Assembly: GCA_963780475.1 (NCBI GenBank)
Contig: CAWACB010000008.1
Location: 707,030-771,029, forward strand
Direction of reading: 5' to 3'
Source of the DNA: an uncultured Solirubrobacterales bacterium
GTDB taxonomy: Bacteria > Actinomycetota > Thermoleophilia > Solirubrobacterales > JBBDJG01
DNA: 64,000 bases
Shown here: positions 1,791-18,174 of the stretch, piece after piece
How positions within the stretch are numbered: the first letter of the stretch is position 1
Layout of the letters: each line of letters opens with the position of its first letter
Translations under genes and position numbers: made by a program
The notes under the pieces: generated by a model
The model's input: the letters and a program-made list of their open reading frames with translations, nothing else
Told to the model about the DNA's origin: nothing
Databases searched by the model: none

Positions 1791-1799
1791 GCGGTGAGT

Positions 1800-2471
1800 C
1801 TAGAAGGCCTCTCCTCCGCGCCGGGGAGGGCCCCGGTGGCGCCGGCGGCGGACCACCTCGACCAGCACGATTCCTCCGACGACCAGCAGCGCAAGCCCGA
1901 CGAGCGCGCCCCGGGGAAGGCCGGAGTCATCCGAGGGCACCCAGTAGAGGTCACCGGCGATGTTGGCGCGCTGCGCGCCCACCACCACCGGCACTTTCCA
2001 ATCGAAGACCTTCGTCCGCTGGTCCTCGTCCTTGACCTGCTTGGGCGTCGTTTTCGACATGAAGTGGATCCGGTGGTCGTGCCACTCGAACCTGCCGGTC
2101 TTCGATACCTGCTCCCACCGGGGCCTGGCGCTCGCCTTCGCCTCGGGTGGGATCTGCACGTCCGCGAAGCGCTCCTCGTTCAGGTAGAACGACGGCGAGC
2201 GCTTGTTGACCTCCACGGTCCCGTCGGCCTCCAGCCGGACGTAGGGCTCGCCGTCGTAACCGCGTATCGCGATGTCCTTGCCGGTCCGGTTGACGAGCTC
2301 GAGCCGGTCGTCGTAGTTCAGGACACGCACCTCGAGCCCCGGGATCGGGGGTGCGATGTCGCGCACCGTGGACCGGTAGTTCGGGCTGCCGCCGTGCGCC
2401 GCGGCTGTGGCGGGCAGGAAGCATGCGAGCGCCGCGAAGATCGCGAGCGCCCAACTGGCGATTCGCTTCAT
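1800..2471 (-). CDS. secreted, C-terminally membrane-anchored protein of the copper cluster
   Basis: ORF 1800..2501 trimmed to MKRIASW. Signal peptide ending AAA|HGG (predicted mature N-terminal His), a roughly 190-aa domain, then a TM helix with an RRRRH tail. Lies directly downstream of ycnI. Confidence 0.65.
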   Translation of the reverse strand: MKRIASWALAIFAALACFLPATAAAHGGSPNYRSTVRDIAPPIPGLEVRVLNYDDRLELVNRTGKDIAIRGYDGEPYVRLEADGTVEVNKRSPSFYLNEERFADVQIPPEAKASARPRWEQVSKTGRFEWHDHRIHFMSKTTPKQVKDEDQRTKVFDWKVPVVVGAQRANIAGDLYWVPSDDSGLPRGALVGLALLVVGGIVLVEVVRRRRHRGPPRRGGEAF

Positions 2472-2481
2472 TGGCGAACGC

Positions 2482-3165
2482 TCAGCCGGTAGAGGGTCCA
2501 CGACGGCGCAGGAGTACCACGGCCAGGCTCACAAGCGCCACCGCGAGTGCCGCGATTGCGAGCCAGCGCGCCGTGTCGTCGGAGGATCCCCCGGACTCGT
2601 CATCGCCGCTGTCGGACTGCGCGGTGTCCTCGGCCGCCGTGCCGGCAGATCCGCCCGCCTCGTCTCCCTCGCCGCCCGCGTTCTGCTTCGGATAGCGCTT
2701 GCTGACCGTGGTTATGGCGGCAGGGCTCTCCGACCCCGCGGGGCCGATCCAGCGTGCCTTCTCCCCGTCGTCGTAGGTCTGGATCGCCTTCCACGCGATC
2801 GGGCCCTCGCTTGGCGGGGTCGACGCGAGGAAAGAGAACCGGGCGAAGCCGTCCGGCCGCAGGCGACCGCGCCAGATGACCGTCTCGGTGGACCCGTCCT
2901 TCTTCTTGGTCAGGGTGCGCGTCCAGCCGGCCGTGTCCTCGTAGGAGAACGGGATCACCCCAGGCGGAACCTGCACCTCGACCTTGGTGGTCGCCTGGTC
3001 GCGCTCGTTGGGCACCAGCACGTCGAACAGCACGGCATCGTCGGGCGCCGCGGTCGCCGGCAGCACCTCGACGTGCGCCGAGGCCGGCGGCGCGAGTGCC
3101 AGCAAGCCCAGCAATGCGAACAGGAGCGTGAGCCGGGATCCGGCCCTTCCAAGACGGTCGCTCAT
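2482..3165 (-). CDS. ycnI: YcnI/DUF1775-family copper-binding protein
   Basis: Signal peptide ...PPASA|HVEV (mature N-terminal His), a DUF1775-like domain, an acidic Gly/Ser/Asp linker and a C-terminal TM anchor. Start codon lies 3 nt after the copC stop. Confidence 0.8.
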   Translation of the reverse strand: MSDRLGRAGSRLTLLFALLGLLALAPPASAHVEVLPATAAPDDAVLFDVLVPNERDQATTKVEVQVPPGVIPFSYEDTAGWTRTLTKKKDGSTETVIWRGRLRPDGFARFSFLASTPPSEGPIAWKAIQTYDDGEKARWIGPAGSESPAAITTVSKRYPKQNAGGEGDEAGGSAGTAAEDTAQSDSGDDESGGSSDDTARWLAIAALAVALVSLAVVLLRRRGPSTG

Positions 3166-3168
3166 GCC

Positions 3169-3538
3169 CTACCGCCGCAGCCGGAAGCTGAACGAGCCCT
3201 TCTGGGTGTGCCCGTCCACCGCCTTGATCGTCCAGCGGGCCTTGTACTTGCCGGCCTTCAGGCCGCCCTTGAGCGACACGACCAGGCGCTTGACGTTGCG
3301 CGGGTCACGCCCGCCCTTGCCGGCCGAGACGACCTTTCCGCCGGGCCCGGTGACGCGAATCGAGCCGCTGCGGATCTGCTGGTTGAAGGTGACCTTGACC
3401 GAGCGGATCGAGGTCTTGGCCTTGCCGCCACGCTTGGGGCTCGTCGACGACACCTCCGTGTGGGCCAGGGCGGTGGTGGCCGGGATCGCCATCAGCGCCA
3501 GCGCGACGGCCAGCCAGGGGATGAAACGGATTTCGCAT
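3169..3538 (-). CDS. copC: CopC-domain copper-binding protein (start needs a 1-nt correction or a non-canonical start)
   Basis: The last 120 aa of ORF 3169..3951 give a signal peptide WLAVALALMAIPATTALA|HTEV and CopC-like sequence (KVTFNQQI, IRVTGPGGKVV, KYKARWTIKAVDGHTQKGSFSF). There is no in-frame ATG/GTG/TTG. ATG 3538-3536 follows a GAGAGAGAAGAGAG SD but is 1 nt out of frame. One extra A in the A3 run (3531-3533) would give MRKIRFIPWLAV... Confidence 0.7.
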
Positions 3539-3566
3539 CTCTCTTCTCTCTCTGCATGTCGGGGGC

Positions 3567-3596
3567 GAAGCGCCGGGCCGTGAGGCCCGGCGCTTC
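3567..3596 (-). terminator. GC-rich hairpin between the upstream secreted-protein gene and copC
   Basis: Perfect 13-bp stem GAAGCGCCGGGCC / GGCCCGGCGCTTC with a 4-nt loop. No U tract follows, so it could be a terminator, an attenuator or an mRNA-stability element. Confidence 0.45.
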
Positions 3597-3611
3597 CCGC
3601 TTGCGGATTGA

Positions 3612-4618
3612 CTAGATCTTGCCCGAGGCGCGTAGCCGAGGCGTTCGTCAGGACGGCGCTGAAGCTCACCTTCGAGCCCTTCGCCTTCTTGAGCGCCTTC
3701 TTGGCCTTGCTGCCGAGCTTGATCTTCAGCTGCGCCTTGCCGCTGGCGTCGAGCTTGCCGCTCGCCTTGCCGAGCGCCCCTGCCGTCAGGCCGGTCTTCT
3801 TGTCCGACTTCTTGCAGGTCGCCGTGACGGTGACGCTCTCGCCGGCGGGTCCGGTCACCTCGACCGTCGCGCCGCCCGAGGAGATCTTGCCGACCAGCTT
3901 GACCTTGAGGGTGGTCTGCATCTGCGCGATCGTCGCCGCCTGCGCGCTCACCGTCGCCTGAGTGGTAGTCAGGCTCGTCGTAAGCGACCCGATCTGGGTG
4001 TTGAGCGGGACGGTGAGCAGGTTTGCGTAGCCGCTGTTGAGCGCCGCCGTGCTGTTCTGAGTCTCGTCGGCAAGGCGTGTAGGTCCCGCCGAGGCCGACG
4101 CACTTGGCCATCAGGTCGCCCTCGGTGAGGTCGACTCCGGTAAGGGTCTGGACGACTGGAATCCAGTGAGCCGGATCGTCCTCGAGCCCGGCCGAGGTGG
4201 CCTGGAACGGCACGTAGTTGTAGAACGGGTCCGCTTCCTGCCAACTCGCGATCGCATCCGCGGTCTCGAGCGCCGCTACTCCGCGGCAGGTGGCGTGCGG
4301 CTGAGCAGCCGTGTCACCCTCCGCCAGCGACTGGGATTCGCGGGATGGTGGCCCGGTAGTCCCCTGGCAGCCGCGAGTAGTCGACCATGCCCTTGTCGTT
4401 CGCTCCGTTCGTCTCGCGCAGGACCATCGTGTAGCCGTGGTTGGTGACCACGTGACGAGTCTGGTTCTGCAACGTTCCGAACACGCCGGGCGTCGGATCG
4501 GCTGTCGATTCGCGGCGACGTCGGTGTAGACCGACCCGTGCCCGTGCGCCGAAGCCGGAACTGCGAGTGCCGCGACCGCCATTGCGGCGGCAAGCACGCC
4601 TTTGCGATTGAACCTCAT
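3612..4618 (-). pseudogene. secreted protein with predicted mature N-terminal His; frame interrupted at least 3 times
   Basis: Signal peptide MRFNRKGVLAAAMAVAALAVPASA|HGHGS. Clean sequence continues in other frames (VFGTLQNQTRHVVTNHGYTMVLRETNGANDKGMVDYS; ADAIASWQEADPFYNYVPFQATSAGLEDDPAHWIPVVQTL; TLKVKLVGKISSGGATVEVTGPAGESVTVTATCKK). ATGA overlap with the upstream gene at 4615-4618. TAG 3612-3614 is reached only if CCC 3622-3624 is read as CC. Confidence 0.55.
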
Positions 4619-5742
4619 CTGACGACTCCTTTATTGGAGGTGGACCGCTCCGCGCGGCCACCGGAAGGAATGAACACGGCCTGGTAGCGGCCGCGAGGAG
4701 GGTTCTCGAGACGGAACTTGAACCGGCCCTTCCGCGCGACGGTCTTCGCCGTCGAACGGATCTCGCCGGCTCGCAGCAACAGAACGCGGCCACGGACAGC
4801 CGGGCTGGTCGTCCCCCGGATGATCGCCCCGCCGGCCTTCAGATTCTTGATCTTGATGCGGGTCCTGGAGACCATCGTCACCGTCAGCGTCTGAGAGCGG
4901 ATCCCGCCGGCAGCTGCTCGGATGCGGGTCGTCTGCTTGAGACGAATCCGCGCCGAGTAGCTCCCGTTGGCGCTGGTCTTCACCCGCCGGGTGCTTTTGC
5001 CGCCACCGGTTGCAGTGAGATCGACCGTGACGCCGGCCCGAGCCGGCACCACGCTGCCGCGCACCCTGACGCGGCCAGTCCCGACGCGTTTTGACGGCGC
5101 CTTCAGACGCACCGCCGCCACGGCGTTACCGCCGCCGCCGCTGCCGCACGCCCCGACAACGAAGTCTGCTCCGTACTCGGTCCCCGCGGGGGTGACCCCG
5201 CCGGGCGCGCGGTCCACCCAGTGCGGCGCCGTGGTGACGCCGTCGTAGGTGAGCACGAAGGAGTTCCGGAGAACGCCTCCGGGCACCGCTCCAGTGCCGG
5301 CCGGCACGTCGATCGTGACCGTGCCCCCCGCGCCTGCCACGACTTCGCCGGCAGTCGATCCCGCGGAAACGAAGTTCGCGCCCTCGGTCCAGGTGCCGTA
5401 GTCGTACGCGACCGGTGCGTTGCGAAATGCCTGGGCGCGGACGTACCTGATCTGCCCACCCGTTTCAAACAGGAACGCGAAACCGGCCGCGACAGAGTCG
5501 TCGTGCGCCGGCTCCCATACCGCTTGCCGGATCTGTATGACCGCCTGCAGTCGGCCAGCCGCCTCCGAGTACCACGCCGACGTCACATCGGTGTTGATGT
5601 GATGGCCGTCGCCCGTGGCATCGGTGATCTGCGGTTGTCCGCCGCATGGGGCGGGTGGTGCGGCACCGGCGGATCCTGCGGTGACCAACATCGTCACCAG
5701 CACGACCGCGAATGCGGTTGCTGCGAGCCGTCTCCGGCCCAT
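4615..5742 (-). CDS. secreted hypothetical protein
   Basis: ORF 4615..5781 trimmed to MGRRRLAATAFAVVLVTMLVTAGSAGA (signal peptide). Non-repetitive 370-aa sequence with a C-terminal beta-rich basic region. No family recognised. Confidence 0.6.
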   Translation of the reverse strand: MGRRRLAATAFAVVLVTMLVTAGSAGAAPPAPCGGQPQITDATGDGHHINTDVTSAWYSEAAGRLQAVIQIRQAVWEPAHDDSVAAGFAFLFETGGQIRYVRAQAFRNAPVAYDYGTWTEGANFVSAGSTAGEVVAGAGGTVTIDVPAGTGAVPGGVLRNSFVLTYDGVTTAPHWVDRAPGGVTPAGTEYGADFVVGACGSGGGGNAVAAVRLKAPSKRVGTGRVRVRGSVVPARAGVTVDLTATGGGKSTRRVKTSANGSYSARIRLKQTTRIRAAAGGIRSQTLTVTMVSRTRIKIKNLKAGGAIIRGTTSPAVRGRVLLLRAGEIRSTAKTVARKGRFKFRLENPPRGRYQAVFIPSGGRAERSTSNKGVVR

Positions 5743-5817
5743 CTCGAAACCTCCTCGATTACCAAGTGGCCGCCGTCCCAAGGGGGACGTCAGCCGAACT
5801 TCAAGCTGGAAATCGAG

Positions 5818-6427
5818 CTAAGCCGGAGGCGCGCGGCCCGCCAGGTTCCACGCGAGCACGTCGAGGCGCCGTCCGGGAGGCGTTGCCAGGACGGTCCAGG
5901 ACCTGTACGGCGCCGATGTGGGGCGCCGTGGTGCCGCGGACGTGGCGGCGACGAACTCTATGGTCCGTCTTGCGAGCGAAGAGACAAAGGCGATCAGCGC
6001 GCCGACTGCCAGTGAGAGGAAGACGGCAGTCCAGCCGCCGTTGCCGAATACGCCGATCAGCCCACTCGCGTGACCGGGCGCAAACGCTCCCTCGAAGCCC
6101 TCCTGAAGGGTGTAGATCGCGAGCAGTGCGGCACTGGCGCCAAGCCACGAACGCGAGAATGAAGGTGCGCGGTCCTGCGGTCCTATGCCGCGGAACGCGC
6201 GCGCCAGCGAGAAGCCGAAGCGCACCAGCGCGATGCCGAGCAGCACGACGACCAGCGCCTCGAGTACCGGCAGGTACGAGTGGCCCTGCTCTGCGAGTGC
6301 CGCGCCCGCACCGTCGCCATAGGTGAGGACGTAGCGCAGCTCGTGGACTATGACCGCGCCTGCGCCAAGCAGCGCCACGGCACGTACCCTTCCCCAGGCT
6401 CCTCCCATGCGGGCCATAGTAGCCGGA
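5818..6427 (-). CDS. integral membrane protein (about 4 TM helices)
   Basis: C-terminal 203 aa of ORF 5818..7368, starting at MARMGGAWGRVRAVALLGAGAVIV. Several hydrophobic helices. The upstream part of the ORF overlaps the FAD oxidase out of frame. Confidence 0.55.
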
Positions 6428-6461
6428 AAATGCGAGCCTTGGCGCGCCTTTGCGGTGCGGC

Positions 6462-7946
6462 TCAGGGGTCGATCAGGACGCCCGGATTCATGATCCCGGC
6501 CGGATCGACGGCCGCCTTCGCGCCGGCCAGCGCTTGCGCGAAGCGATCGGGCCGCTGCCGGTCGTACCAGGGCCGGTGGTCGCGGCCAACCGCATGGTGG
6601 TGCGTGATCGTCCCGCCGGCGGCGATCAGGGCCTCCGATGCCGCCGCCTTGATCTCGTCCCACTGCGCGACCTCGGATCCGCGCTTCGCCGGCGCGACGA
6701 TCGTGAAATAAGGCGCCGGGCCGTCGGGATAGACGTGCGTGAATCGGCAGGACACGCGCGCCCCTTCGCCGCAGATCTCGCGTGCCGCGCCTTCGGCGGC
6801 CTCCATGACCGCAGCGTGGAATGCCGGGAAGCGGTCCCAGGTGATCGCCGTCTCGAAGGTGTCGCTCAGGATCCCCATGCGGACGAACAGGTCGCGGATG
6901 TACGGCGCGCGCAGGAAGGCCTGGCGCCACGCGCCGACCGGGTCGGTGCCGCCTCCCTCTTTGGCCGAGCCGCCCTCGCCCTTGTCCGCACGCGAGCGCA
7001 CCGTCCCGCCGTGGTCGCCCGCCAGCTCCAGCGCGCGGTCCATCGGGTGCGAGACCGGGTGGTCGGCCGACTCGAATCCGAGTATCAGCAGCGCCTCCGG
7101 GTGCTCCGAAGCGCTCGTCAGCTCGACCTCCTTGGCATCGAGCAGCCGGCAGTTGGACGGGTGCAGGCCGCTCTGCGACAGCGCCCGGACCGCCTCCGCG
7201 GCGGCCAGGAAGTCGTCGTATCCGACGCTCGCCGAGGAGCGGAACACCGGTCGCTCCTGCACACGCACCCACGCCTCGGTGATCACTCCGAGGATGCCCT
7301 CCGATCCGAGCAGCATCCGGTCCGGGCTCACCCCGGCGCCCGACCCCGGCAGCCGCCGGCTCTCCCACTCGCCGGCGGGCGTGATGGCCCGCACCGACTC
7401 GACCAGGTCATCGATGTGCGTATAGAGAGTCGCGAAGTGGCCGCCGGCGCGAGTGGCGATCCAGCCGCCGAGGGTCGCGAGCTCGAACGACTGCGGGAAG
7501 TGGCGCAGCGTGAGCCCCTGCTCGCGCAGCTGATCCTCGAGCACCGGTCCCGTCGCGCCGCCCTGGATCCGGGCCGCGCGCGAGCGGCGATCTACTTCGA
7601 GCACTCGGTCGAGCGCCGACAGGTCGAGCGTCACCGCGCCCGTGTAGCCGGAGCCGATCGCCGCCTCGACGCCGCCGACGACGCTCGTCCCGCCGCCGTA
7701 GGGGATCACCGCCGCGCCGCGCTCGCCACACCATTCGATCACCGCGGCGACGTCGCGCTCGTCGCGGGCGAAAGCGACCAGGTCGGGCGCGTGGTCGTAG
7801 CGGCCGCGGAAGGCGCGGACGACGTCGCGGTAGGCCTTGCCGTAGGCGTGCGATGCACGATCGTGCGGCTGGTCGGAGAACAGCTCGGCGAGCGCGGCCG
7901 GCGCCCGCAGGCGCGGAGCCGGAAGCTCCAGGTGCGCGACGTCCAC
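6462..7946 (-). CDS. FAD-linked oxidase, alkyl-dihydroxyacetone-phosphate synthase (AGPS)-like
   Basis: Intact 494-aa ORF. PCMH-type FAD-binding domain (AAVIPYGGGTSVVGG) and a C-terminal FAD-oxidase domain carrying GGTITHHHAVGRDH. This is the tri-His motif typical of AGPS, not the GEHGIG motif of GlcD/D-lactate dehydrogenases. Confidence 0.8.
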   Translation of the reverse strand: MDVAHLELPAPRLRAPAALAELFSDQPHDRASHAYGKAYRDVVRAFRGRYDHAPDLVAFARDERDVAAVIEWCGERGAAVIPYGGGTSVVGGVEAAIGSGYTGAVTLDLSALDRVLEVDRRSRAARIQGGATGPVLEDQLREQGLTLRHFPQSFELATLGGWIATRAGGHFATLYTHIDDLVESVRAITPAGEWESRRLPGSGAGVSPDRMLLGSEGILGVITEAWVRVQERPVFRSSASVGYDDFLAAAEAVRALSQSGLHPSNCRLLDAKEVELTSASEHPEALLILGFESADHPVSHPMDRALELAGDHGGTVRSRADKGEGGSAKEGGGTDPVGAWRQAFLRAPYIRDLFVRMGILSDTFETAITWDRFPAFHAAVMEAAEGAAREICGEGARVSCRFTHVYPDGPAPYFTIVAPAKRGSEVAQWDEIKAAASEALIAAGGTITHHHAVGRDHRPWYDRQRPDRFAQALAGAKAAVDPAGIMNPGVLIDP

Positions 7947-8106
7947 CGGGTCCTCGACGTCCGGCGCCCCGAAGCCGAGGTGTGCCCGGATGCCGGCCGC
8001 GGCCTGTTCGGCATCGCGCGCCGAGAGCTGCTGGTCCTCGTAACCCCAGCCCCAGACGCTGCGCCGCCGCGTCGCGGCCGACGTTTCTACCGCCGTGTCG
8101 AGCTCC

Positions 8107-10089
8107 CTACCAGTGCACGCCTCTCATCAGGTGCGCGAACGCGATCGCCTCTGTGCTCGGCTGCGCGTCCTTCTTCTTGTCGTCGCCCTGCGCCGCGGCG
8201 CTCTCGGGGAACAGCTTGAACGCCGTGTTCAGGATCGCGTCCATGGCCTTCGGCGCGGTCGCGTAGAGGACCTCGCCGAAGTTGCCCAGACGCGTCGCGA
8301 TCTTCTTCTGCCGGTAGATCATGGCCCGGGAGATCATGTCCGCGGCCTCCTCGGGAGTCGCGGTCGGGAAGGCGTCGTAGATCCCGGTCGGCGCGATCAT
8401 CGGCGTCTTCACCAGCGGCATGTAGATGGTCGTGATGTGCACGCCGTCCTCGACGATCTCCGATGCGATCGAGCGGGAGAACGCATCCAGCGCGCTCTTG
8501 CTCGCGACGTAGGCGGAGAAGCGCGGGGTGTTGGTCTGCGCGCCGATCGAGGACACGTTGATGATGTGGCCGAAGCCGCGGTCGCGCATCCCCGGCAGGA
8601 ACCCGAGGATCAGCTTCAGCGCCCCGAAGTAGTTCAGCTGCATCGTGCGCTGGTAGTCGTGGAAGCGGTCGTACGAGCGCTTCACGGAGCGCCGGATCGA
8701 GCGCCCGGCGTTGTTGACCAGGATGTCCACCCGCCCGTGCTGCGTGAGGATCTCATCGATCAGCCGGTCGATGTCCTCGAGCTCCGACAGGTCGGCTGGA
8801 TGGATGTGCGCCACCCCGCCCAGCTCCTCGATCTCCGACTTCACCTCCTCGAGCTTGTCGGCAGACCGCGCGACCAGCAGCACGATGCCGCCGGCCTCCC
8901 CGACCCGCAACGCGGCCGCGTGCCCGATGCCGCTCGAGGCGCCGGTGATGACGACCACCTTCCCCTCGACCGCGCCGCGCAGGCTGCGGTCCCGGAACAG
9001 GTCCGGGTCGAGGTTGCGCTCCCAGTAGTCCCACAGCCGGTCGGCGTATCCGTCGAGCGAGGGAACCGAGATGCCGGTTCCGTCGAGCGCGCGCTGCGTG
9101 TCGCGCGAGTCGTAGTCGCTCGGGTAGTCGATGTACGACAGCGTCTCGCGCGGGATCCCGAAGTCGCCCAGCACCTGATCGATGATCGACTTCACCGGCG
9201 GCAGCTGAGCGATCGCCTTGCGCGCCGACTTCGGCACGACGTTGGTCATCTGCCGGTCGATCCGCATCGCGAACTCGGGCGCATGCGCGGCACGCGCGAA
9301 CGTGTTCATCACCTGACCCGCCGACTTCGGCGAGGGGTCGGTGAGGTGGAACGCCTGTCCGTCGAGGCCGCCGGTGTGCGCGATGTGGTCCATCGCGGCC
9401 GCGACGAAGTCGACCGGCACGATGTTGATCGTCCCGCCCTCGAGGCCGACCACCGGTACCCACTGCGGCACCAGCGACCGCAGCCGCTGGATCACCTTGA
9501 AGAAGTAGTAGGGCCCGTCGATCTTGTCCATCTCGCCGGTCTGCGAGTGGCCCACGACGATGCCCGGCCGGTACACGCGCCACGGCACCTTGGTCCGCTC
9601 CCGCACGAGCTTCTCGGACTCGTACTTGGTGCGCGAGTAGGGGTCCTTGAGCTTCTGGCCCTCGTCGAACATGTCCTCGCGGAACAGGCCGCGGTAGCGA
9701 CCGGAGACCGCGATCGAAGAAGTGTGGTGAAAGTGCTTGGCGCCCAAGTCGTTCGCGAGCTCGACCGCGTGCGCCGTCCCATCGACGTTCATCCGCTGGT
9801 TCGTCTCGTCGTCCGCGGACATGTCATAGCTCGCCGCGAGGTGGAAGAAGTGGTCGACCCCTTCGAGCTTCGCGCGGTCCTCCTTCGAGACACCCAGCGC
9901 CGGAGCGCCGAGATCTCCCACTACCGGGACGACGCGGCTGTCTGCGGCCGCCCAGCGCGACTGCAGCTCCTCCAGCCGCGAGAGCGAGCCCTCGCGAACC
10001 AGCACGTAGATGGTTCCCTCCCGCTCGAGCAGGCGCTCGACCAGGTGCCTGCCGATGAAACCGGTGGCTCCAGTGACGAAGTACTTCAT
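8107..10089 (-). CDS. two-domain fatty acyl-CoA reductase (N-terminal FAR/thioester-reductase domain + C-terminal classical SDR), Rv3391/Marinobacter FAR type
   Basis: Intact 660-aa ORF. MKYFVTGATGFIGRHL Rossmann motif and YSRTKYESE catalytic motif in the N-domain. Second Rossmann VVVITGASSGIGHA with YVASKSAL in the C-domain. Confidence 0.9.
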   Translation of the reverse strand: MKYFVTGATGFIGRHLVERLLEREGTIYVLVREGSLSRLEELQSRWAAADSRVVPVVGDLGAPALGVSKEDRAKLEGVDHFFHLAASYDMSADDETNQRMNVDGTAHAVELANDLGAKHFHHTSSIAVSGRYRGLFREDMFDEGQKLKDPYSRTKYESEKLVRERTKVPWRVYRPGIVVGHSQTGEMDKIDGPYYFFKVIQRLRSLVPQWVPVVGLEGGTINIVPVDFVAAAMDHIAHTGGLDGQAFHLTDPSPKSAGQVMNTFARAAHAPEFAMRIDRQMTNVVPKSARKAIAQLPPVKSIIDQVLGDFGIPRETLSYIDYPSDYDSRDTQRALDGTGISVPSLDGYADRLWDYWERNLDPDLFRDRSLRGAVEGKVVVITGASSGIGHAAALRVGEAGGIVLLVARSADKLEEVKSEIEELGGVAHIHPADLSELEDIDRLIDEILTQHGRVDILVNNAGRSIRRSVKRSYDRFHDYQRTMQLNYFGALKLILGFLPGMRDRGFGHIINVSSIGAQTNTPRFSAYVASKSALDAFSRSIASEIVEDGVHITTIYMPLVKTPMIAPTGIYDAFPTATPEEAADMISRAMIYRQKKIATRLGNFGEVLYATAPKAMDAILNTAFKLFPESAAAQGDDKKKDAQPSTEAIAFAHLMRGVHW

Positions 10090-10155
10090 CGCTCCCCCAT
10101 CAACTCCCCTCGTAGTTCACCTCAAGGCCCGTCACCGGGCGCACGCCGCATTCTT

Positions 10156-11220
10156 CTACAAGAACGCCGAGCCGCGACGTACGAGGTTCTCGTAGATCGC
10201 GCCCTGGATCACTTCGCGCACGCGCTCGGAGATCTCGAACACGAGCGACCGGTCCTCCGCCGCCTCCGGCCCGTAACCGGAAAGATCGATCGGCTCGCAG
10301 AACTCGATGCGCCAACGCGAGGGCAGCGGAACGGTGCCGAACAGGCCGAGCGCGGGGAACGTCGGCGTGATCGGGAAGTACGGAGCACCGGTCAGCCGGG
10401 CCAGCAGGCGCGACTCGCCGAGCTTGGGGTAGGTCTCCTCCGAGCCGACGACGGCGACGGGCACGATCGGCGCGCCGGTGCGCAATGCGATCTCGACGAA
10501 TCCGCCGCGCCCGAAGCGCTGCAAGCGGTAGCGCTCGGAGAAGGGCTTGCCGGCTCCCCGGGAGCCCTCCGGGAACACCATCACCAGATGGCCCTGCTCG
10601 AGCAGGCGCATCGCGTTGAACGGCGATGCCACCACGCCGCCGACGCGGCGCATGAACGAGCTCACCCATGGAAGGCGGAAGGCCCAGTCCAGCACCATGA
10701 ACCGGGGCTGGCGCGGCAGGGGGTGGAGCTTCTGGATCGCGACCGACATCATGGTGGCGTCCCACGGGACGACTCCTGCGTGGTTGGCCACCAGCATCGC
10801 GCGGTCGTGGCCGGGAACGTGGTGCAGGCCCGTCGACTGCACCCGCCACCAGTGGTCGTACATGAACTCGAGAAGCGGGTAGACGATCTCGACGAACTCC
10901 TCGTCGTAGCCCCACTCGTCCTGCGCGTAGTCGCCGCGCATGCGGCGCACCGCGCGGTCGAGCACCTCGCGGCTCCAGCCGGGCATGGCGACGGCGGCGT
11001 GCTCGAGGGCGATCGGCAACTCGAACCGGGCCGCCATCGCCTCGCGCAGCGAAGCGGGGCGCGCCGAGTCGGGCGGCACGTGGCCGTTGCCGGTGTGGGT
11101 GCGCGTCTCCGTGGGCGGCCGGCTCGCGGGACGGCGCCGCGGCGGTGGCTGGGGCACGCCGGTGTCCACCCGCAGCCGGCGGGCGCGTTCGTGCTGCGCG
11201 CGGGCGCGCTCGTCCGTCAC
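10156..11220 (-). CDS. PlsC/GPAT-family glycerolipid acyltransferase
   Basis: Intact 354-aa ORF. Acyltransferase blocks LVANHAGVVPWD and VMVFPEGSRG, and IVPVAVVG. GTGA start/stop overlap with the upstream gene at 11217-11220. Confidence 0.8.
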   Translation of the reverse strand: MTDERARAQHERARRLRVDTGVPQPPPRRRPASRPPTETRTHTGNGHVPPDSARPASLREAMAARFELPIALEHAAVAMPGWSREVLDRAVRRMRGDYAQDEWGYDEEFVEIVYPLLEFMYDHWWRVQSTGLHHVPGHDRAMLVANHAGVVPWDATMMSVAIQKLHPLPRQPRFMVLDWAFRLPWVSSFMRRVGGVVASPFNAMRLLEQGHLVMVFPEGSRGAGKPFSERYRLQRFGRGGFVEIALRTGAPIVPVAVVGSEETYPKLGESRLLARLTGAPYFPITPTFPALGLFGTVPLPSRWRIEFCEPIDLSGYGPEAAEDRSLVFEISERVREVIQGAIYENLVRRGSAFL

Positions 11221-12266
11221 GTCGGGCTCCCGCTACGGGTCTGCCGGAGGGCGCCGGTGGCGATCGGGCTGATCTGGGGAACGCCGAGCGCCGGGTCGCG
11301 GAACCCCGGCAGCACCCGGCGGCCGTGCAGGCCGCGCAGGAAGTCGTGGACCGCCTCCTCGGTGGTGCGCGGGCGGTAGCCGACCTCGTCCGTCAGGCGC
11401 GCGCAGTCGATCGTCAGCCCGTGGCGCAGCCAGCGGATCGCCTCCTCGGGCAGGCGCGGCAGGCCGAATCGCCGGGACACCGACAGGGCCGCGCCGAACA
11501 GCGGCGCCGGCACGGGCGCCGGAAGCTTGCCGGCGAGCCGCAGCAGGCGCACGAGTGAGACGCTGCCCTCGCCCGCCACGTTCACCGGTCCCGGGACCGG
11601 GCGCCGGACCGCCGCCTCGAGCGCGCCGACCGCGTCGCTCGCGTGGATGAACTGGAGCAGCGGGTCATAGCCGAGCTGGGTCGGCACGACGGGCTGGCGC
11701 AGCAGGCGCGTCAGCGGCGAGTCGATGTCGCTGCCGAGCGTGGGCTGGTAGCGCAGCATCATCACCGTCGTCTCGGGATAGCGGCGCGCGTAGTTCTCGA
11801 AGTAGCTCTCGAGCTCTCCGACGTCACGCTGGAAGCGCGTCCGGAGCGGGAAGCGGCGCGCCATGTCCTCGGTGAAGAACTCGGGGGCGTTCGGCTCGGC
11901 GCCGTAGATCGCGGCCGAGCCCCGCACCACGATCGTGCGCACGGTCGGCGCCTTCTCGCAGGCCGCGAGCAGCTGGAGCGAGCCGATCACGTTGATGTCG
12001 TGCAGCTGCTGGGGCGCCTTGCCGGGCTCCGCCGCCAGCAGCACGTCGCAATGGACCACCGTGTCCACTTCGGTCTGCGGCAACAGGCGGGTGATCAAGG
12101 GGTTCCGGATGTCCGCCCGGATGAACTCGGTGCGTTCCAGGTCGGCCGCAGGAGCCCGCACGTCGAGCCCCGCGATGTACTCGACCTCGCGGGAGCGCTC
12201 CAGCCGGCGCGCCAGCTCCGTCCCCCAGTAGCCGGACACGCCCGTGATCAGGACGCGGCGGCCCAT
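11217..12266 (-). CDS. NAD-dependent epimerase/dehydratase-family (extended SDR) protein
   Basis: C-terminal 349 aa of ORF 11217..12788, from MGRRVLITGVSGYWG (Rossmann). Extended-SDR-like sequence throughout. The ATG at 12266 overlaps the TGA that terminates the corrected upstream gene (TGATG). Confidence 0.8.
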   Translation of the reverse strand: MGRRVLITGVSGYWGTELARRLERSREVEYIAGLDVRAPAADLERTEFIRADIRNPLITRLLPQTEVDTVVHCDVLLAAEPGKAPQQLHDINVIGSLQLLAACEKAPTVRTIVVRGSAAIYGAEPNAPEFFTEDMARRFPLRTRFQRDVGELESYFENYARRYPETTVMMLRYQPTLGSDIDSPLTRLLRQPVVPTQLGYDPLLQFIHASDAVGALEAAVRRPVPGPVNVAGEGSVSLVRLLRLAGKLPAPVPAPLFGAALSVSRRFGLPRLPEEAIRWLRHGLTIDCARLTDEVGYRPRTTEEAVHDFLRGLHGRRVLPGFRDPALGVPQISPIATGALRQTRSGSPT

Positions 12267-12788
12267 CAGCTCTTCTTCGAGGAGCCGCTCGAGCGGCGGG
12301 CGGTCGAGCGCTTCGCGGTCGAGCGCTTCGCGGCGGTGCTCTTGCCGGCGGTCGAGCGCTTGCGCGGCGGTGCTCTTGCCGGCGGTCGAGCGCTTCGCGG
12401 TTGACGGCTTTGACGCGGTGCTCTTGCCGGCGGTCGAGCGCTTCGCGGCCGTGCGCTTCGCGGCCGGCTTGGCCTTCGCCGAGCGCTTCGGCTTGCCCTC
12501 CAGGCGGTCGACCCGGTCCTGGAGCGCATCGATCCGCGCGCGGAGGCGGCGAAGGTCCTCTCGGGTCGCGAATCGCAGATCGCCGAGGGCGCCACGGACT
12601 CGATCCGGCACCCCGGCGGCCGCCTCGGCTTGATGCTCGACGAGCTTGGTGGCGTCGTCGACCAGGTCCTGCGCGCGGCCCCGCGTCGAGCGCGCCGAGC
12701 CGCGCGTGCTCTCGACCGTCCGCTCGACGGCGCGCCGAACCGAGTCCGGCAGGGAGGGGGTCGGGGCCTTGGGCCGCTGGCGTGCCAA
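12266..12788 (-). pseudogene. PhaF/phasin-like coiled-coil protein with a Lys/Arg/Ala/Ser/Thr repeat tail (one 1-nt insertion)
   Basis: N-terminal part has a phasin-like motif (DLRFATREDLRRLRARIDALQDRVDRLEG), followed by KPKRSAKAKPAAKRTAAKRSTAGKSTA... repeats. Removing the extra G at 12362 restores ...AAKRSTAGKSTAAKRSTAKRSTARRSSGSSKKS-stop at 12266. As assembled the gene is fused in frame to the epimerase ORF. Confidence 0.6.
12306..12470. repeat. imperfect 33-nt tandem repeats (coding, 11-aa basic units)
   Basis: The unit gagcgcttcgcggcggtgctcttgccggcggtc occurs at 12321-12353 and again at 12354-12387 with one extra g (34 nt). Partial or variant copies flank these. Confidence 0.7.
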
Positions 12789-12804
12789 GCGAGGTGCCCG
12801 CGTC

Positions 12805-13305
12805 CTAGCCGGTGGGCCCGACGACGCCGGCCGTACTTGCGGAGTCCGCCGCCGGCCTGCGCGCAGCGGCGACCTCTTCCGTCAGGCGGTCGAGCCGCTC
12901 CTCGATCCGGTCGAGCCGGCTCGCGAGCTCCTCCGCGGGCGAGCGGGTCGAGGTCTTCAGGTCGGCGATCCGGTCTCCGACTCGCTCGACTCCGTCCTCC
13001 AGCTCCTCCAGCCGCTGCGAGACCGAGCGCAGCCGGCGAGCGATCTTCTCGACGTCGGACGCCGAGGGCAGGTTGAGCGCCGCCATCGCCTGCTGCTGCG
13101 CCTGGGCGAGCTTCTCGCGGGCGGTGAACGCCCCCGACAACGCCGAGTTGATCATCGGGTTCTCCAGCAGGTCGTCGGCCAGCTTGCCGACCGTCTCCTC
13201 GGCCTGGCTCGCCATCCGGGCGCGCAGCCCGGGCGTTTCCTCGGCGGGGCTGCCGTACTCGGCCCCGAGGTCTTCTGGGCTGTTCATTGGATCCTCTCTA
13301 TTCAT
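12805..13305 (-). CDS. phasin-like coiled-coil protein
   Basis: Intact 166-aa ORF. Heptad-rich sequence (SDVEKIARRLRSVSQRLEELEDGVERVGDRIADLK, LASRLDRIEERLDRLTEEV). First gene of the 13305-5818 same-strand block. Confidence 0.6.
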   Translation of the reverse strand: MNREDPMNSPEDLGAEYGSPAEETPGLRARMASQAEETVGKLADDLLENPMINSALSGAFTAREKLAQAQQQAMAALNLPSASDVEKIARRLRSVSQRLEELEDGVERVGDRIADLKTSTRSPAEELASRLDRIEERLDRLTEEVAAARRPAADSASTAGVVGPTG

Positions 13306-13447
13306 ATAGAAGCTTCATACGGAAGCGTCGTATGAATGCCGCGCCGGGGGAACCTAGCGCATTCCGGGGCAAGCGCCCAGGCTTCTGAGGGGCCTGCGGC
13401 GCGGCGGTTGCGAAATGGGGTCGAGCGGGGCCCGAAACCGCCTGAAA

Positions 13448-13484
13448 AGTCTCAAGTCAAACTTGAGGTTGAGACTACTTGAGG
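13448..13484. promoter_or_regulatory. nested inverted/direct repeats of ACTTGAG(G) in a divergent intergenic region
   Basis: CTCAAGT-caa-ACTTGAG hairpin (13451-13467). Alternative pairing of AGTCTCAA (13448-55) with TTGAGACT (13469-76). ACTTGAGG is repeated at 13461-68 and 13477-84. The segment is AT-rich relative to the background. Confidence 0.35.
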
Positions 13485-13843
13485 GTTGCTGACGGAAGCG
13501 TGCACCAGGTTTTCACACGACTTTCAGGAAACCTGGCTAGGTTGCCCCCATGGCGGCCCCGCAAAACGGCGAAATCGACGGCCCAAGGGCGACGCGGTAT
13601 CAAGGTGGCACGACCCGTAGCCGATCCAACTATCATGTCCCGAGTGGGAGGGCCGGAGGTTTCAACGGCTGCAGCCGCACCGGCGGCGCATACGCGCTGC
13701 CATTTCGCGTTGCAAAGGCACTCGGAAGCAGCTAGCGTGGCGCGCTTTACAGGTAGTCTGCGGCTCCTGCGCACCGACGCAGGCGCATCGCACCGAAACC
13801 TGACGCCAACCGACATTCACTGAACCACTGACCAGCTGAACGG

Positions 13844-16257
13844 ATGAGACGGAAGCTCACCTTCGCCGCGCTCACGATTGCGCTATTCCTGGCGGGCTTC
13901 GCCGTGGCGTCTTTCCCCGCGCTGGCCGAGCTGCGGACGATCACCATCACGCTGGTCGGCGGCCAGCAGATCGTCACCACCGTCGACGTGCCCCCGGGCA
14001 CGCGGGCGGACCAGATCCGGCTGCCCGAGGTGAGCGCTCCGATCGAGAGCATCGAGGAGGGCCCGGCGCCCGCGTCGCCCTCGAAGCCGAAGCACCGACA
14101 GCGCCGACGACGGCTTCGGCTCCGGCGACGACTCGAGCGACGGCACCGAGCCGCAAGCCGAAGAAGGACAAGGACGCCGCCGGCGAGTTCCTCGACGGCG
14201 CAGACCCTCAACCCGAGCCTGAGCGTGAGAAGGAGAGGACGGAGCCCGGAGCGATCCGGACACCCGACGGAACTCCGACGGCGGACAACCCGACGCTCAC
14301 CCTCGGCCTCCCCGGCCCGGCTCCGGTGGGCGTGCCGAACTTCGTCATCAACAAGTTCCGCATCCCGCCCTTCCTGCTTCCGATCTACCAGGCCGCCGGC
14401 ACGCAGTACGGCATCCGGTGGGAGGTCCTGGCCGCGATCAACGAGATCGAGACCGACTACGGCCGCAACCTGAACGTCTCCTCCGCCGGCGCGCTCGGCT
14501 GGATGCAGTTCATCCCGTCTTCCTGGCGCGCTTACGGGACCGACGCCAACGCCGACGGCGAGAAGGACCCCTACAACCCCGTCGACGCGATCTTCGCCGC
14601 GGCCCGTTATCTGAAGGCCGCCGGCGCCGACCAGAACCTGCGGCGCGCGATCTTCGCCTATAACCACGCCGACTGGTACGTCGACTCGGTCATGATGCGG
14701 GCGCGGATGATCGCCGGCCTGCCCGCCGACCTGGTCGGCTCGCTGACCGGGCTCACCCAGGCGCACTTCCCGGTCTACGCCAAGGCGCGCTACGCCGACG
14801 ACGTCTCCGAGCGCGACATCGCGCGGCTGAGCCGCAAGACGCGCAAGGCCCACAACGCTTCGGCTCTGGTCGACTCGCACGAGTCCCGGCGCTCGATCAA
14901 CATCTACAGCCGCCGCAACGCCCCGGTGATCGCGGTCAACGACGGCGTCGTCAAGAAGATCGGCGAGAACGATGACCTCGGCCGCTTCATCGTGCTGCAG
15001 GACGTCTACGGCAACCGGTTCACCTATGCGCACCTGGGCAGCGTCTCCAAGCGTTACCCGGTCCCGAAGGACAGCGACGCCTCCAAGCTGCGCGACGAGT
15101 TCCGCTCCGCGCGCGCCGCCGCCTCCAGGAAGCTGCCGAAGCCGACCGCTCCGGCGAGCGCCGGCACGCAGCGCACCAGCACGCCCGGCCGCTGCGGCGA
15201 GCGCCACGCAAAGCGAGCGTCCCGCGCCGCGCCCGCAGGCCGCCGCCGAGGCCGTCAAGGAGCGCCTGTTCGCCAACCCGACGCGCCCGCGGGTCCGGCC
15301 GATCGCCGAGGAGACGGGCCAGCTCGAGAGCTCGCGCTTCGAGACCTTCCGCGTCTACTTCTCCAAGGCGCTGCGGCTCGCGCCCTCCGAGGTCAAGCTG
15401 CGTCCGATGCGCAAGGGCGCCCGCGTCGCCGCCGGCACCATCCTCGGTCGCGTCGGCAAGGTCTCCGAAGGCCCCGGAGCGAAGCTCGCACCACACCTCA
15501 ACTTCTCGGTCCGCCCGGCGGGCCGTGGCGCGCCGCGGATCGACCCGAAGCCGATCCTCGACGGCTGGAAGCTGCTCGAGGCGACCGCCATCTACCGCGC
15601 CGCCGGCAAGAACCCGTTCGTCGCCGGCGACGCCGGACAGGTGCTGCTGATGTCGAAGGAGGCGCTGTCGCGCCGCGTGCTGGCCGACCCGGACGTCGAC
15701 GTCTACGAGCTGCGGCCGCGACGACATCCAGAGCGGGTCAGATCGACCGCCGCGTGCTCGCCACGCTCGAGTTCCTCGCGGCGTCGGGGCTCAAGCCGAC
15801 GGTCACCTCGCTCAAGTGCGGCCACAGCTTCTACTCCAAGTCGGGCAACGTCTCCGAGCACTCGTCGGGCAACGCGGTCGACATCGCCGCGGTCAACGGC
15901 AAGCCGATCCTCGGCAACCAGGGTCGCGGCTCGGTCACCGAGGACACGATCCGCAAGCTGCTGACGCTCCAGGGCCCGATGCAGCCGCACCAGATCATCT
16001 CGCTGATGGACATGGGCGGCCCCACGATGGTGCTCGGCGACCACGCGGACCACATCCACGTCGGCTTCCAGCCGCTGTTCGGCACCAACGAGAAGCTCGG
16101 CCGGGTGGCGCGCGAGGTGCTGTCCAGCAACCAGTGGGACAAGTTCGTCTCACGCCTGACCGACATCGAGAACCCGACCGTGCGCACGGCGCCGTCCAAG
16201 TACTCGATCAAGGTCAAGAAGCACAAGCGCTCCAGCGAAGCGCACGTCGGGGAGTAG
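13844..16257 (+). pseudogene. secreted multi-domain peptidoglycan hydrolase (lytic transglycosylase + M23/LytM-like + LAS/M15-like zinc peptidase); at least 4 frame changes
   Basis: Signal peptide MRRKLTFAALTIALFLAGFAVASFPALA. SLT-like domain (AAINEIETDYGRN..GALGWMQFIPSSWRAYG..AIFAYNHADWYV). M23-like segment (INIYSRRNAPVIAVNDGVV..FIVLQDVYGNRFTYAHLG ... PHLNFSVRPAG). C-terminal SEHSSGNAVDI and GDHADHIHVGF motifs. Frame changes near 14095, 14165, 15200 and 15715. Confidence 0.75.
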
Positions 16258-16270
16258 CCCAGGCCACTCC

Positions 16271-17114
16271 GTGGCGGGGCAGCTCTTCCCCTTTCTCCAG
16301 CTCGACTTCCCGTTTCCCCTGGGACCGGCCGACGGCCGCTACCTGGCACGGCCCGACAAGGAGGGCGGCGGCGTCGAGGTGATGGTGCTGCGCACGCTGG
16401 ACGCCGAGCGCAAGCCGGGCCGCCGGGCGCGCCGCGTCGAGGCCACTGAGGCCGAAGCTGAGGCGGCGCCCATCTTGCGCGTGACGGTGATCGGTGCGGA
16501 GGCCTTCCCGGGCGAGGAGGCCGCGAGGGAGCTGGCTGAAGGAGGCCTGCGACGACCCCGAGCCGGAGATGGAACGGGGCCTGCGGAGCATCAACCGGGT
16601 CCTGCACGGACACCGGATCGCCGCCCACGACCCGTACGTCCGCGAGGTATCGCTCGGCCAGGCCCACCGCGTGCGGATCGGGTTCGGCAGCGGCGACGAG
16701 CTGCTGGAGGGCTCGCATACGGAGGCCTTCCTGATTCCCGCGCGCCGCAAGAAGCGCCGCCAGATGCTCGAGCCCCAGAGCGAGCTGGCCGGCATCCTGG
16801 GCGGTCGCCGGCCCCCGCTTCCGAGCGAGGACCTGCTGCTCCGCGCCCGCCTCGACCTGCTCGAGGGCCGTATGCGCCAGGCGGCCATCCAGGCGGCGGG
16901 CGCCGGCGACGCGCTCGAGGCGGAGCTGCGCGACGACAAGTCGCTGCCGGCGGAGGCGCGCGCCTGGGTGGCGGAGCGCTGCCGCGTGCTGCGCGAGCTG
17001 GCCCGAGCGGCACTGACCGCCGAGCCACGAGGAAGGCGCCGCGAGCGAGATCGACGACATCGTCGCCGGGATGGAGCGAATCGTCCGGCGCCGGAGGCTG
17101 GCGGCGGGGAGTTA
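16271..17114 (+). pseudogene. conserved-looking hypothetical protein (at least 2 frame changes)
   Basis: AGQLFPFLQLDFPFPLGPADGRYLARPD... continues in another frame as WLKEACDDPEPEMERGLRSINRVLHGHRIAAHDPYVREVSLGQAHRVRIGFGSGDELLEG..., then ...EIDDIVAGMERIVRRRRLAAGS-TAG (17112-17114). No family recognised. Confidence 0.4.
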
Positions 17115-17260
17115 GCGCCCGGCGACGCCAGAGCGGAGGGCCGCGGCGCCGCGGGGGCCGAGCTCGTAGGGAGGCGGCACAGTTTCGCGCGTTCGCGGCA
17201 CGTCTCCCACGCGCTAACGCGACGCGGGCGTGCCCGATCAACTGGCGCCGCCTCCGCCGC

Positions 17261-17300
17261 CTGATGAATCTTCCACGCCATGGCGAGGAAGATTCATCAG
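17261..17300. repeat. 40-nt near-perfect palindrome between convergent genes
   Basis: CTGATGAATCTTCCACGCCA|TGGCGAGGAAGATTCATCAG has a single A/A mismatch. About 50% GC against a roughly 70% background. No U tract on either strand. Confidence 0.6.
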
Positions 17301-18172: not shown

Positions 18173-18174
18173 CG

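Follow-up and report, generated by a model that had tools for sequence, protein, structure and literature searches.

Which lipid pathway is encoded by a compact six-gene block of an uncultured Solirubrobacterales bacterium, and what are phasin-like proteins doing beside its enzymes? The block occupies positions 6462-13305 on the minus strand of a 64,000-nucleotide stretch of contig CAWACB010000008.1 (assembly GCA_963780475.1), hereafter the window, which has a G+C content of ~70% and whose nearest kin are metagenome-derived genomes of Solirubrobacterales (class Thermoleophilia). An original prediction made from the letters of this stretch had proposed the four enzyme types of the animal ether-lipid pathway in one operon with two phasin/PhaF-like proteins. 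Our preferred reading, which we hold at a probability of roughly 55%, is that a route to 1-O-alkyl glycerolipids of the AGPS (alkylglycerone-phosphate synthase) type, with oxygen-independent chemistry, is merged here with a module of phasin, PhaF-like protein, atypical extended short-chain dehydrogenase/reductase (SDR) and Rv0502-type acyltransferase (AT). As predicted, the six genes are co-directional; they follow one another in the minus-strand order phasin-like protein 1, PhaF-like protein bearing a tail of basic repeats, extended SDR, AT, two-domain fatty acyl-CoA reductase (FAR), then AGPS, and their G+C values at third codon positions (GC3) of 0.90-0.94 are a codon signature typical of real genes. 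Both predicted overlaps were confirmed: at 11217-11220, GTGA links the stop of the SDR to the start of the AT, and in TGATG at 12264-12268 the SDR ATG overlaps the stop codon of the PhaF frame (TGA at 12266). The features of the block are these (aa, amino acids; ORF, open reading frame):

12805-13305, minus strand: phasin-like protein 1 (166 aa; GC3 0.90)
11217-12788, minus strand: single ORF as assembled, PhaF-like part plus extended SDR (523 aa)
12266-12788, minus strand: PhaF-like protein, frame-corrected (162 aa)
12299-12463, minus strand: tandem DNA repeat coding for the basic tail (AKRSTAGKST units; extra C at ~12362)
11217-12266, minus strand: atypical extended SDR of Rv0501/GalE2 type (349 aa; PF01370)
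10156-11220, minus strand: AT of Rv0502 type (354 aa; PF01553 and PF03982)
8107-10089, minus strand: two-domain FAR (660 aa; NF005539)
6462-8096, minus strand: AGPS (ORF from the first GTG 6462-7946, 494 aa; conserved frame to 8096)

The flavoenzyme at the end of the block had been called AGPS-like, with a tri-His motif THHHAVG, and it is AGPS by all sequence criteria available. It combines FAD_binding_4 (PF01565, 117 bits) with FAD-oxidase_C (PF02913, 134 bits) and groups with AGPS in the Protein Data Bank (PDB), scoring 234 bits (E 2.8e-68) against Dictyostelium 2uuu and 199 bits against guinea-pig 4bby, versus 95 bits for glycolate oxidase and 84 bits for D-lactate dehydrogenase (D-LDH) among other enzymes of the VAO family. 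Residues aligned with R419, R566, T568, Y578 and H615-617 of the guinea-pig enzyme are identical in the window protein and invariant in 121 sequences (the window protein and 120 homologues). Nenci et al. (2012) are said to have assigned catalytic roles to Tyr578, the His615-617 loop, Arg419, Arg566 and Thr568 in guinea-pig numbering. A glycolate/D-lactate oxidase-type dehydrogenase, which would carry out no ether-lipid chemistry, might be read from NCBIfam, where the best match is GlcD at 111 bits; that score is far under the cut-off of 568, in a collection that has no AGPS model. The full-length preference for AGPS (234 versus 95 bits), together with the conserved AGPS-specific HHH loop, Tyr and Arg, rules out a GlcD/D-LDH identity, and we regard the reading built on it as scarcely credible.

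The gene before AGPS encodes the protein previously described as a FAR+SDR fatty acyl-CoA reductase, a description confirmed over its full length by a match to NF005539 (974 bits over residues 1-660; cut-off 549). The N-terminal domain is NAD_binding_4 (PF07993, 176 bits, residues 5-233), with GATGFIG and YSRTK legible in the translation; the C-terminal one, a classical SDR, is Acr1-like (adh_short, PF00106, 177 bits, residues 377-566; NF004521, 311 bits, residues 373-621) and contains GASSGIG and YVASK. Rv3391 has the same two-domain architecture, its C-terminal half being an Acr1-like reductase, and the termini compare closely, MKYFVTG... here versus MRYVVTG... in the Rv3391 primers and ...GVHW* in both (PMC3522743). 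On these matches and motifs, FAR belongs to the alcohol-forming type of Rv3391 (FCR1/AcrA1) and Marinobacter Maqu_2507, both of which reduce acyl-CoA to fatty alcohol (PMC3522743).

Is this neighbourhood conserved? Loci were anchored on AGPS in 80 species-representative GTDB genomes, 73 of them testable for FAR linkage, and on the AT at 84 loci; denominators below are the loci with enough flank to be testable, and L numbers identify individual loci. Among the Solirubrobacterales GTDB species genomes, FAR lies directly 5' of AGPS on the same strand at 42 of 73 loci and within 4 kb at 53 of 73, and the whole block occurs at a single AGPS-anchored locus, L001. Seen from the AT, the upstream genes are close to constant, with SDR 5' of it at 47 of 48 loci, the PhaF-like gene at 34 of 37 and phasin 1 at all 18. 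FAR lies within 5.5 kb 3' of the AT at 24 of 31 loci (11 co-directional, 13 convergent), and AGPS follows the co-directional FAR wherever this could be examined (8/8). Conservation of the gene neighbourhood in relatives, which the original prediction had made a point to check, is thereby seen from both anchors. FAR is common to two conserved associations, one of phasins, SDR and AT with FAR and the other of FAR with AGPS. They are joined in one operon in the window, L001, L081, L083, L084, L092-L094, L098, L099, L110 and L111, and in the joined-block relatives the stop and start codons overlap or nearly adjoin.

Most FAR-AGPS loci have a further companion. In ~44 Solirubrobacterales genomes (within L002-L080; for example L079 11486-12439) the gene next after FAR and AGPS, in the same orientation, encodes a UbiA-family prenyltransferase (317 aa, PF01040 83 bits), with 2-oxoglutarate dehydrogenase and aconitase genes flanking these loci. 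From its NDxxDxxxD / RPIAAGE region, compared by eye, we take the product to resemble decaprenyl-phosphate phosphoribosyltransferase; the window has no copy of this gene.

The acyltransferase had been assigned to the PlsC/GNPAT family, and the broader half of that assignment stands. It matches PF01553 (64 bits), and its AlphaFold (AF2) model, with a core pLDDT (predicted local distance difference test) >85, matches PlsC 5kym and GPAT1 8e4y, a generic GPAT/LPLAT fold that cannot separate GNPAT from LPAAT. The GNPAT half is not supported, the protein being of Rv0502 type with an H-x6-D motif and no GNPAT-specific domain among its Pfam matches. Motif I reads NHAGVVPWD, within which NHxGxxPxD is invariant across 38 aligned sequences; FPEGSR and IVPVAV are present as well, and the first ~55 residues are disordered and Pro/Arg-rich. 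The SDR matches Epimerase (PF01370, 73 bits) and keeps the N-terminal TGxxGxxG motif as ITGVSGYWG, with ITGVGSYLG and others as variants in orthologues. When it is aligned with Escherichia coli GalE, the catalytic Tyr149 is replaced by Phe and Lys153 by Val, with Ser kept; the corresponding motif RTRFQRD(V/I) is found in all 50 orthologues, rare S/K variants aside, and its Phe and QRD are invariant. Alkyl-DHAP reductases of animals and yeast (DHAP, dihydroxyacetone phosphate) are classical SDRs with a Tyr/Lys dyad. Because Phe and Val stand at the catalytic Tyr and Lys in every orthologue, the SDR appears a poor candidate for an alkyl-DHAP reductase, and its proposed role as the acyl/alkyl-DHAP reductase of the block is not supported.

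What this pair is becomes clearer from distant relatives. An exhaustive AT search gave 741 representative clusters at E <= 1e-30, among them a Mycobacterium sp. AT (355 aa; cluster P0400/P0528) with 47% identity to the window AT. It lies in the order proC / HTH_17 / epimerase / AT / 166-aa FAS1-dehydratase (hadD-like) / HAD hydrolase (serB) / glutaredoxin / hemACDB, which agrees with the published hadD locus map, where Rv0502 (1,077 bp) is labelled 'conserved protein' (PMC7005898). The window SDR and the mycobacterial partner share 36% identity and the motif RxxFx(R/K)D. In Terracoccus luteus a 608-aa AT overlaps its upstream epimerase gene by 4 nt, in the order proC / HTH / 32-aa ORF / epimerase / AT / glutaredoxin / rex / hemACDB, and in Myxococcus stipitatus (L165 7033-10040, CP004025.1) a 679-aa AT follows its own epimerase gene beside mutL. 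The 4-nt SDR/AT overlap recurs in L081, L083, L084 and L166, the two genes are adjacent in L165 and L167, and homologue P0363 is a 600-aa fusion of Epimerase and Acyltransferase domains; the best 150 AT representatives include no FAR-AT (FARAT-like) fusion, and an Epimerase-AT fusion and basic-tail fusions are found instead. All four distant SDR partners (Mycobacterium, Terracoccus, Myxococcus and the fused P0363) carry the Phe-for-Tyr signature RxxFx(R/K/T)D. Because of the AT identity, the shared contexts and the Phe signature, we assign SDR and AT as the Solirubrobacterales orthologues of the widespread Rv0501-Rv0502 pair, an assignment made through the Mycobacterium sp. sequences and the published locus map, and not as a dedicated pair of GNPAT and reductase. 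The annotation of Rv0501 as a UDP-glucose 4-epimerase is then doubtful and probably wrong. The Myxococcus stipitatus pair is likewise of Rv0501-Rv0502 type and is separate from the published agps and elb loci.

Could such a pair simply be housekeeping? It might serve phospholipid or envelope-lipid synthesis, with its nearness to FAR and AGPS an inherited synteny without a shared pathway and with the phasin-like proteins as membrane or nucleoid scaffolds for the AT in place of droplet coats. In mycobacteria the orthologous Rv0501 (galE2) and Rv0502 are not beside FAR (Rv3391), AGPS or a phasin-like gene. The pair sits among unrelated genes (proC, hem, mutL) in Mycobacterium, Terracoccus and Myxococcus, its conservation extends down to M. 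leprae, where the epimerase-family partner ML2428 is kept (PMC4809885), and the basic tails that many lineages carry on the AT itself could simply bind anionic membranes. We nevertheless find this explanation rather unlikely, since FAR stands beside the AT at 24 of 31 loci in two orientations, a sign that the association survived rearrangement, and since both ether-lipid loci of M. xanthus combine FAR, AT and epimerase-family proteins.

The first two genes had been described as phasin/PhaF-like, and for both products the match to the phasin family is borderline. Without its tail, the N-terminal domain of the PhaF-like protein scores 31.1 bits against the Pfam family Phasin (PF05597, cut-off 28.8) and with the tail 26.7 bits; PF05597 is matched at E <= 0.01 by 12 of its 26 orthologues. 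Phasin 1 itself stays below the cut-off, at 20.6 bits, although 16 of its 21 orthologues match PF05597 at E <= 0.01, more often than they match any other family. It is an amphipathic coiled-coil protein without a basic tail. The PhaF-like protein has a phasin domain at its N-terminus, a leucine-zipper-like helix and a repeat tail rich in K/R/A/S/T, and hhalign finds a C-terminal phasin segment common to both proteins (...LNLPSASDVEKIARRLRSVSQRLEELE versus ...LRFATREDLRRLRARIDALQDRVDRLE). Many homologues are named 'polyhydroxyalkanoate synthesis regulator phasin' by the JGI (Joint Genome Institute) pipeline and COG3937 is matched; a PDB profile search with the phasin-1 family returned only generic coiled coils. 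With moderate confidence, and from sequence features, we regard both coiled-coil proteins as phasin-family-like, and both accompany the enzymes at the frequencies given above.

Phasins proper coat granules of polyhydroxyalkanoate (PHA), and a block serving PHA storage would account for the PF05597 and COG3937 matches, for the JGI names and for the pairing of a tail-less with a tailed protein, which mirrors PhaI and PhaF of Pseudomonas putida down to the domain, zipper and histone-like basic tail of the latter (PMC5658603). The likeness has limits: the repeats here are AKRSTAGKST-like and variable versus AAKP, the neighbours are lipid enzymes, and the PF05597 identity is marginal. A Pfam scan of the larger window ORFs showed no gene for a PHA synthase, a depolymerase or a PhaR-type protein, nor do the gene tables of L081, L083 and L084 contain one, and in every lineage examined the stop codon of the PhaF-like gene overlaps the start of a gene for a lipid enzyme. 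True PHA-granule phasins are accordingly very improbable.

Basic tails are not confined to the PhaF-like protein. The NHxG motif is present in 129 AT representatives, 90 of which have an N-terminal extension of at least 100 aa, and in 26 of these 90 the AT carries a strongly basic, histone-like stretch of K/A/P/T, for example KKAAAKKKAPAKKKAAAKKK... The Terracoccus AT has the basic stretch AKKTTAKKATTSTARKVTAKKAT... with AKKATT repeats, and the Myxococcus AT a 420-aa N-terminal extension in which acidic amphipathic repeats come after a basic K/P/A/S segment. In Thermoleophilia a like tail is found on the neighbouring PhaF-like protein instead. Because the tail sits either on the AT or on the neighbouring protein, a 'Rosetta stone' at the level of domains, its function would be tied to the AT. 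The tail length and repeat unit of PhaF-like orthologues are highly variable, and in one lineage (L123 6396-7235) it is phasin 1 that carries a C-terminal basic repeat (ARKSPGSTSRKSPGS...); this suggests that tails are gained and lost on either phasin. The recurrence of histone-like tails points to a conserved localisation mechanism, which may be tethering to a droplet, a membrane or the nucleoid. Proteins of analogous architecture are known: PhaF anchors PHA granules to the nucleoid (PMC5658603), Rhodococcus lipid droplets are connected to DNA through MLDS (PMC5504291), and HBHA/TadA promotes the formation of lipid inclusions (PMC6176652). The likeness to MLDS, TadA and HBHA, small helical proteins with Lys-rich tails that organise triacylglycerol droplets, is architectural and functional only (PMC5504291, PMC6176652).

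Put together, the preferred reading would run as follows. The two-domain FAR would reduce acyl-CoA to fatty alcohol, as shown for Rv3391 and Maqu_2507, and AGPS, to judge by its conserved catalytic residues, would exchange the acyl group of acyl-DHAP for this alcohol and yield 1-O-alkyl-DHAP. The Rv0502-type AT may supply or consume an intermediate of the glycerol backbone, for which DHAP, 1-alkyl-glycerol 3-phosphate and alkylglycerol are candidates. It probably acts in a complex with the atypical SDR, because the two genes show translational coupling and one homologue (P0363) is a fusion of both; the dyad-less SDR might be a partner or adaptor, or else an unconventional reductase. The two amphipathic phasin-family proteins, the second with a tail like that of histone H1 or HbhA, would provide a surface and a tether for the machinery or for its hydrophobic product, and the candidate surfaces are a neutral ether-lipid or wax droplet, an anionic membrane and the nucleoid. 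For the keto-reduction of alkyl-DHAP the operon offers no clear catalyst. The classical SDR that forms the C-terminal part of FAR was considered for this step and not adopted, the domain being the Acr1-like acyl-CoA reductase half, and it is retained as a possible candidate.

Several observations weigh against this reading. Because the SDR lacks the Tyr/Lys dyad, the fourth step of the animal pathway is left without an assigned catalyst. Motif I of the AT has a His-Asp spacing two residues longer than the classical H-x4-D, and its nearest relatives are Rv0502-type proteins beside which Mycobacterium, Terracoccus and Myxococcus have no FAR or AGPS, which leaves its use of DHAP only putative. 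The phasin similarity is borderline, and coiled coils draw spurious matches. A literature search for ether lipids or lipid data in Thermoleophilia or Solirubrobacterales found none. About half of the related loci keep phasins, SDR, AT and FAR without an adjoining AGPS: 13 loci combine phasins, SDR and AT with a convergent FAR, and AGPS follows the convergent FAR at none of the nine testable ones, so AGPS is not an obligatory neighbour of the module.

These last loci would suit a wax-ester or neutral-lipid storage module, in which FAR provides an alcohol, an MGAT/DGAT2-like AT esterifies this alcohol or diacylglycerol, the phasins coat the resulting droplet and AGPS is a secondary neighbour in one sub-lineage. 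The AT does exceed the cut-off of DAGAT (PF03982, 25.2 bits versus 22), a match that is precomputed for most of its homologues. Rv3391-type FARs supply wax-ester synthesis in M. tuberculosis (PMC3522743), and Rv3391 orthologues are located on actinobacterial lipid droplets (PMC10699116). The WS/DGAT wax-ester/triacylglycerol synthase that the original prediction had offered as a user of the alcohols is real (55615-57165; PF03007 157 bits, PF06974 106 bits), but it lies 42 kb away and is unlinked to the operon, and bacterial wax is normally the work of WS/DGAT. The order-wide pairing of AGPS with FAR, in 42-53 of 73 genomes, fits an AGPS that consumes fatty alcohol, and the AT orthologues of Mycobacterium, Terracoccus and Myxococcus have no neighbouring FAR. 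We consider a storage module of this kind unlikely.

A more specific form of the ether-lipid route joins elements of both. The phasin-family proteins would coat and tether an inclusion that is not PHA (1-O-alkyl-diacylglycerol or wax, perhaps tied to the nucleoid through the tail), and the Rv0501-Rv0502-type pair would be a droplet-bound enzyme that makes ether lipids together with the Rv3391-type FAR and AGPS. We offer this tentatively, as a possibility against which the odds still stand.

How new is such a cluster? The original prediction knew of no clustered bacterial version, yet an operon of M. xanthus that contributes to ether lipids had already been described, consisting of MXAN_1676 (AGPS), MXAN_1675 (a FAR-AT fusion) and MXAN_1674 (NAD-epimerase family); deletion of MXAN_1676 lowers alkyl and alkenyl ether lipids, and the elb ether-lipid locus of the same species likewise has epimerase-family proteins alongside a FAR-AT protein (PMC9131029, PMC13012113). 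The same four families, AGPS, FAR, a PlsC-superfamily AT and an extended-SDR-family protein, occur in one operon in both organisms. Compared with the published descriptions of the MXAN genes, FAR and AT are separate genes here, and FAR is of the two-domain Rv3391/Maqu_2507 type, whereas the MXAN fusion joins a FAR1-like domain to a GNPAT-like AT. The nearest myxobacterial relative of the window AT is another gene, the 679-aa AT beside mutL; two phasin-like genes are added, and the lineage is Actinomycetota. The pathway of animals and protists (FAR1, GNPAT, AGPS, DHRS7B/Ayr1) shares a homologous AGPS with identical catalytic residues and a FAR of the alcohol-forming type; unlike it, the window block has an AT of putative role that is Rv0502-type and no demonstrated GNPAT, a stand-alone SDR that is extended and without the dyad, and no peroxisome. 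No PEDS1/CarF gene was seen in the window. In M. tuberculosis, Rv3107c is annotated agpS. To our knowledge, aerobic bacterial ether-lipid synthesis via AGPS outside myxobacteria is documented by homology only. The core chemistry is therefore not new, a cluster of AGPS, FAR, AT and epimerase being known from Myxococcus; what is new is the Solirubrobacterales lineage, the split genes with another FAR type, the identity of SDR and AT as the Rv0501-Rv0502 pair, and the constant phasin-like and basic-tail partners.

Two irregularities in the block concern its reading frames. The basic tail is encoded by a true tandem array of AKRSTAGKST units with a period of ~33 nt (Tandem Repeats Finder: periods 15, 33-34 and 82 nt; 96% matches in the period-34 array). 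One repeat copy has 34 nt and not 33, and its extra C at ~12362 carries the PhaF frame into the SDR; with this C removed, the PhaF-like protein has 162 aa and ends ...RRSSGSSKKS* on the SDR ATG. The two had been predicted as separate genes: as assembled they form one 523-aa ORF, and in L083, L084 and L085 they are separate (L084 is itself indel-ridden; L085, a JGI metagenome contig, is the closest short-read relative and is 88-95% identical to the window). A natural PhaF-SDR fusion of 'Rosetta stone' kind was considered and rejected, because the linker, in the window and in L081, where the two are also 'fused', is a frame-shifted basic repeat (acidic 'VDREE/LDREA') and the genes are separate in those three relatives. 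The second irregularity is in AGPS, whose frame stays open through a conserved N-terminus (RRRSVWGWGYED..., with WGWGYED) as far as 8096, 10 nt away from the stop codon of FAR. No ATG, GTG or TTG is in frame between 7946 and 8096, and homologue P0001 has GTG at the position where the window reads ACG. Genes for beta-oxidation that are intact in relatives are in pieces at 17-22 kb of the window (ECH 18175-18684, 3HCDH 19291-19515, acyl-CoA dehydrogenase 20854-21621), which suggests an indel-prone (long-read) assembly that bears on both the PhaF/SDR frameshift and the missing AGPS start codon. Given the separate genes in L083, L084 and L085 and these broken genes, the fusion is likely an assembly indel or a strain-level lesion.

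Upstream of phasin 1, one short element stands out by its conservation:

13351-13356, minus strand: -10-like box TAGGTT, ~45 nt 5' of the phasin-1 ATG

It lies within ATGCGCTAGGTTCC, and a TAnnnT box (GCGCTAGGTT / TAGTTT / TAGGCT / TACGCT) recurs 5' of phasin 1 in all related loci, at the convergent-FAR loci ~10 nt before the start codon. On this conservation, 13351-13356 is a candidate promoter -10 box; scans for the sigma-70 consensus, promoters and terminators gave nothing significant, nor did Rfam at gathering thresholds over window positions 1-20000. Further upstream, a palindrome CTCAAGT-nnn-ACTTGAG (13451-13467, minus strand) is also found 5' of phasin 1 in L084, L085, L094, L117, L124, L139 and others, ~150-200 nt from the start codon and often followed by GGTTTTTC. 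It sits in a 1-kb intergenic region that faces a divergent SLT/M23 gene, with no co-directional gene upstream; it resembles a terminator or operator and may mark a site for a regulator or the place where a small RNA ends. Directly before the phasin-1 ATG is a perfect inverted repeat, TTCATACG-N7-CGTATGAA (13314-13336, minus strand), which is absent from the closest relatives L084 and L085.

At the other end, relatives show what normally follows AGPS, namely a 96-aa zinc-ribbon gene and then genes for a MerR-cyclase, an S8 peptidase, tilS, hpt and ftsH. The window has the zinc-ribbon gene at a distance, separated from AGPS by a 4.7-kb insert (1800-6460):

1503-1790, minus strand: small zinc-ribbon protein (95 aa; CPxC...CPxC)
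2482-3165, within the insert: DUF1775/YcnI-like protein
3169-3951, within the insert: CopC-domain protein
5818-6417, within the insert: membrane protein (199 aa)

By tblastn, the window zinc-ribbon ORF has 48% and 43% identity to the 96/97-aa post-AGPS genes of L081 and L083. Its family (c14; 95-101 aa, two CxxC pairs), which matched no Pfam family, flanks FAR-AGPS in 14 GTDB loci, either after AGPS or divergent from FAR. Also encoded in the insert are a secreted 388-aa protein that carries a CarboxypepD_reg-like domain and another protein of 233 aa. The insert has no relation to the lipid genes and resembles a copper-handling module; related genes are found elsewhere in L084. The membrane protein had been counted as the last member of the operon. 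It is at this position in no relative and belongs to the CopC/DUF1775 insert, and it was dropped from the operon. Two further lipid-related loci of the window are unlinked to the operon, a cluster of MlaE permease, ABC ATPase and MMPL-like genes (43474-47472) and a PEMT/ICMT-family methyltransferase (30210-30827).

For the order as a whole, made up of very abundant soil Actinomycetota, the close and recurrent linkage of AGPS to a fatty-alcohol-forming FAR leads us to predict a biological source of 1-O-alkyl glycerol ethers that has gone unrecognised. Such ethers serve geochemists as biomarkers. The presence of Rv0501-Rv0502 orthologues beside FAR and AGPS also provides a testable hypothesis for the role of this pair. 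If the tentative droplet-bound form of the pathway is true, four scattered and poorly understood mycobacterial genes would belong to one shared pathway, and Solirubrobacterales would contribute non-isoprenoid alkyl glycerol ethers to oxic soils.

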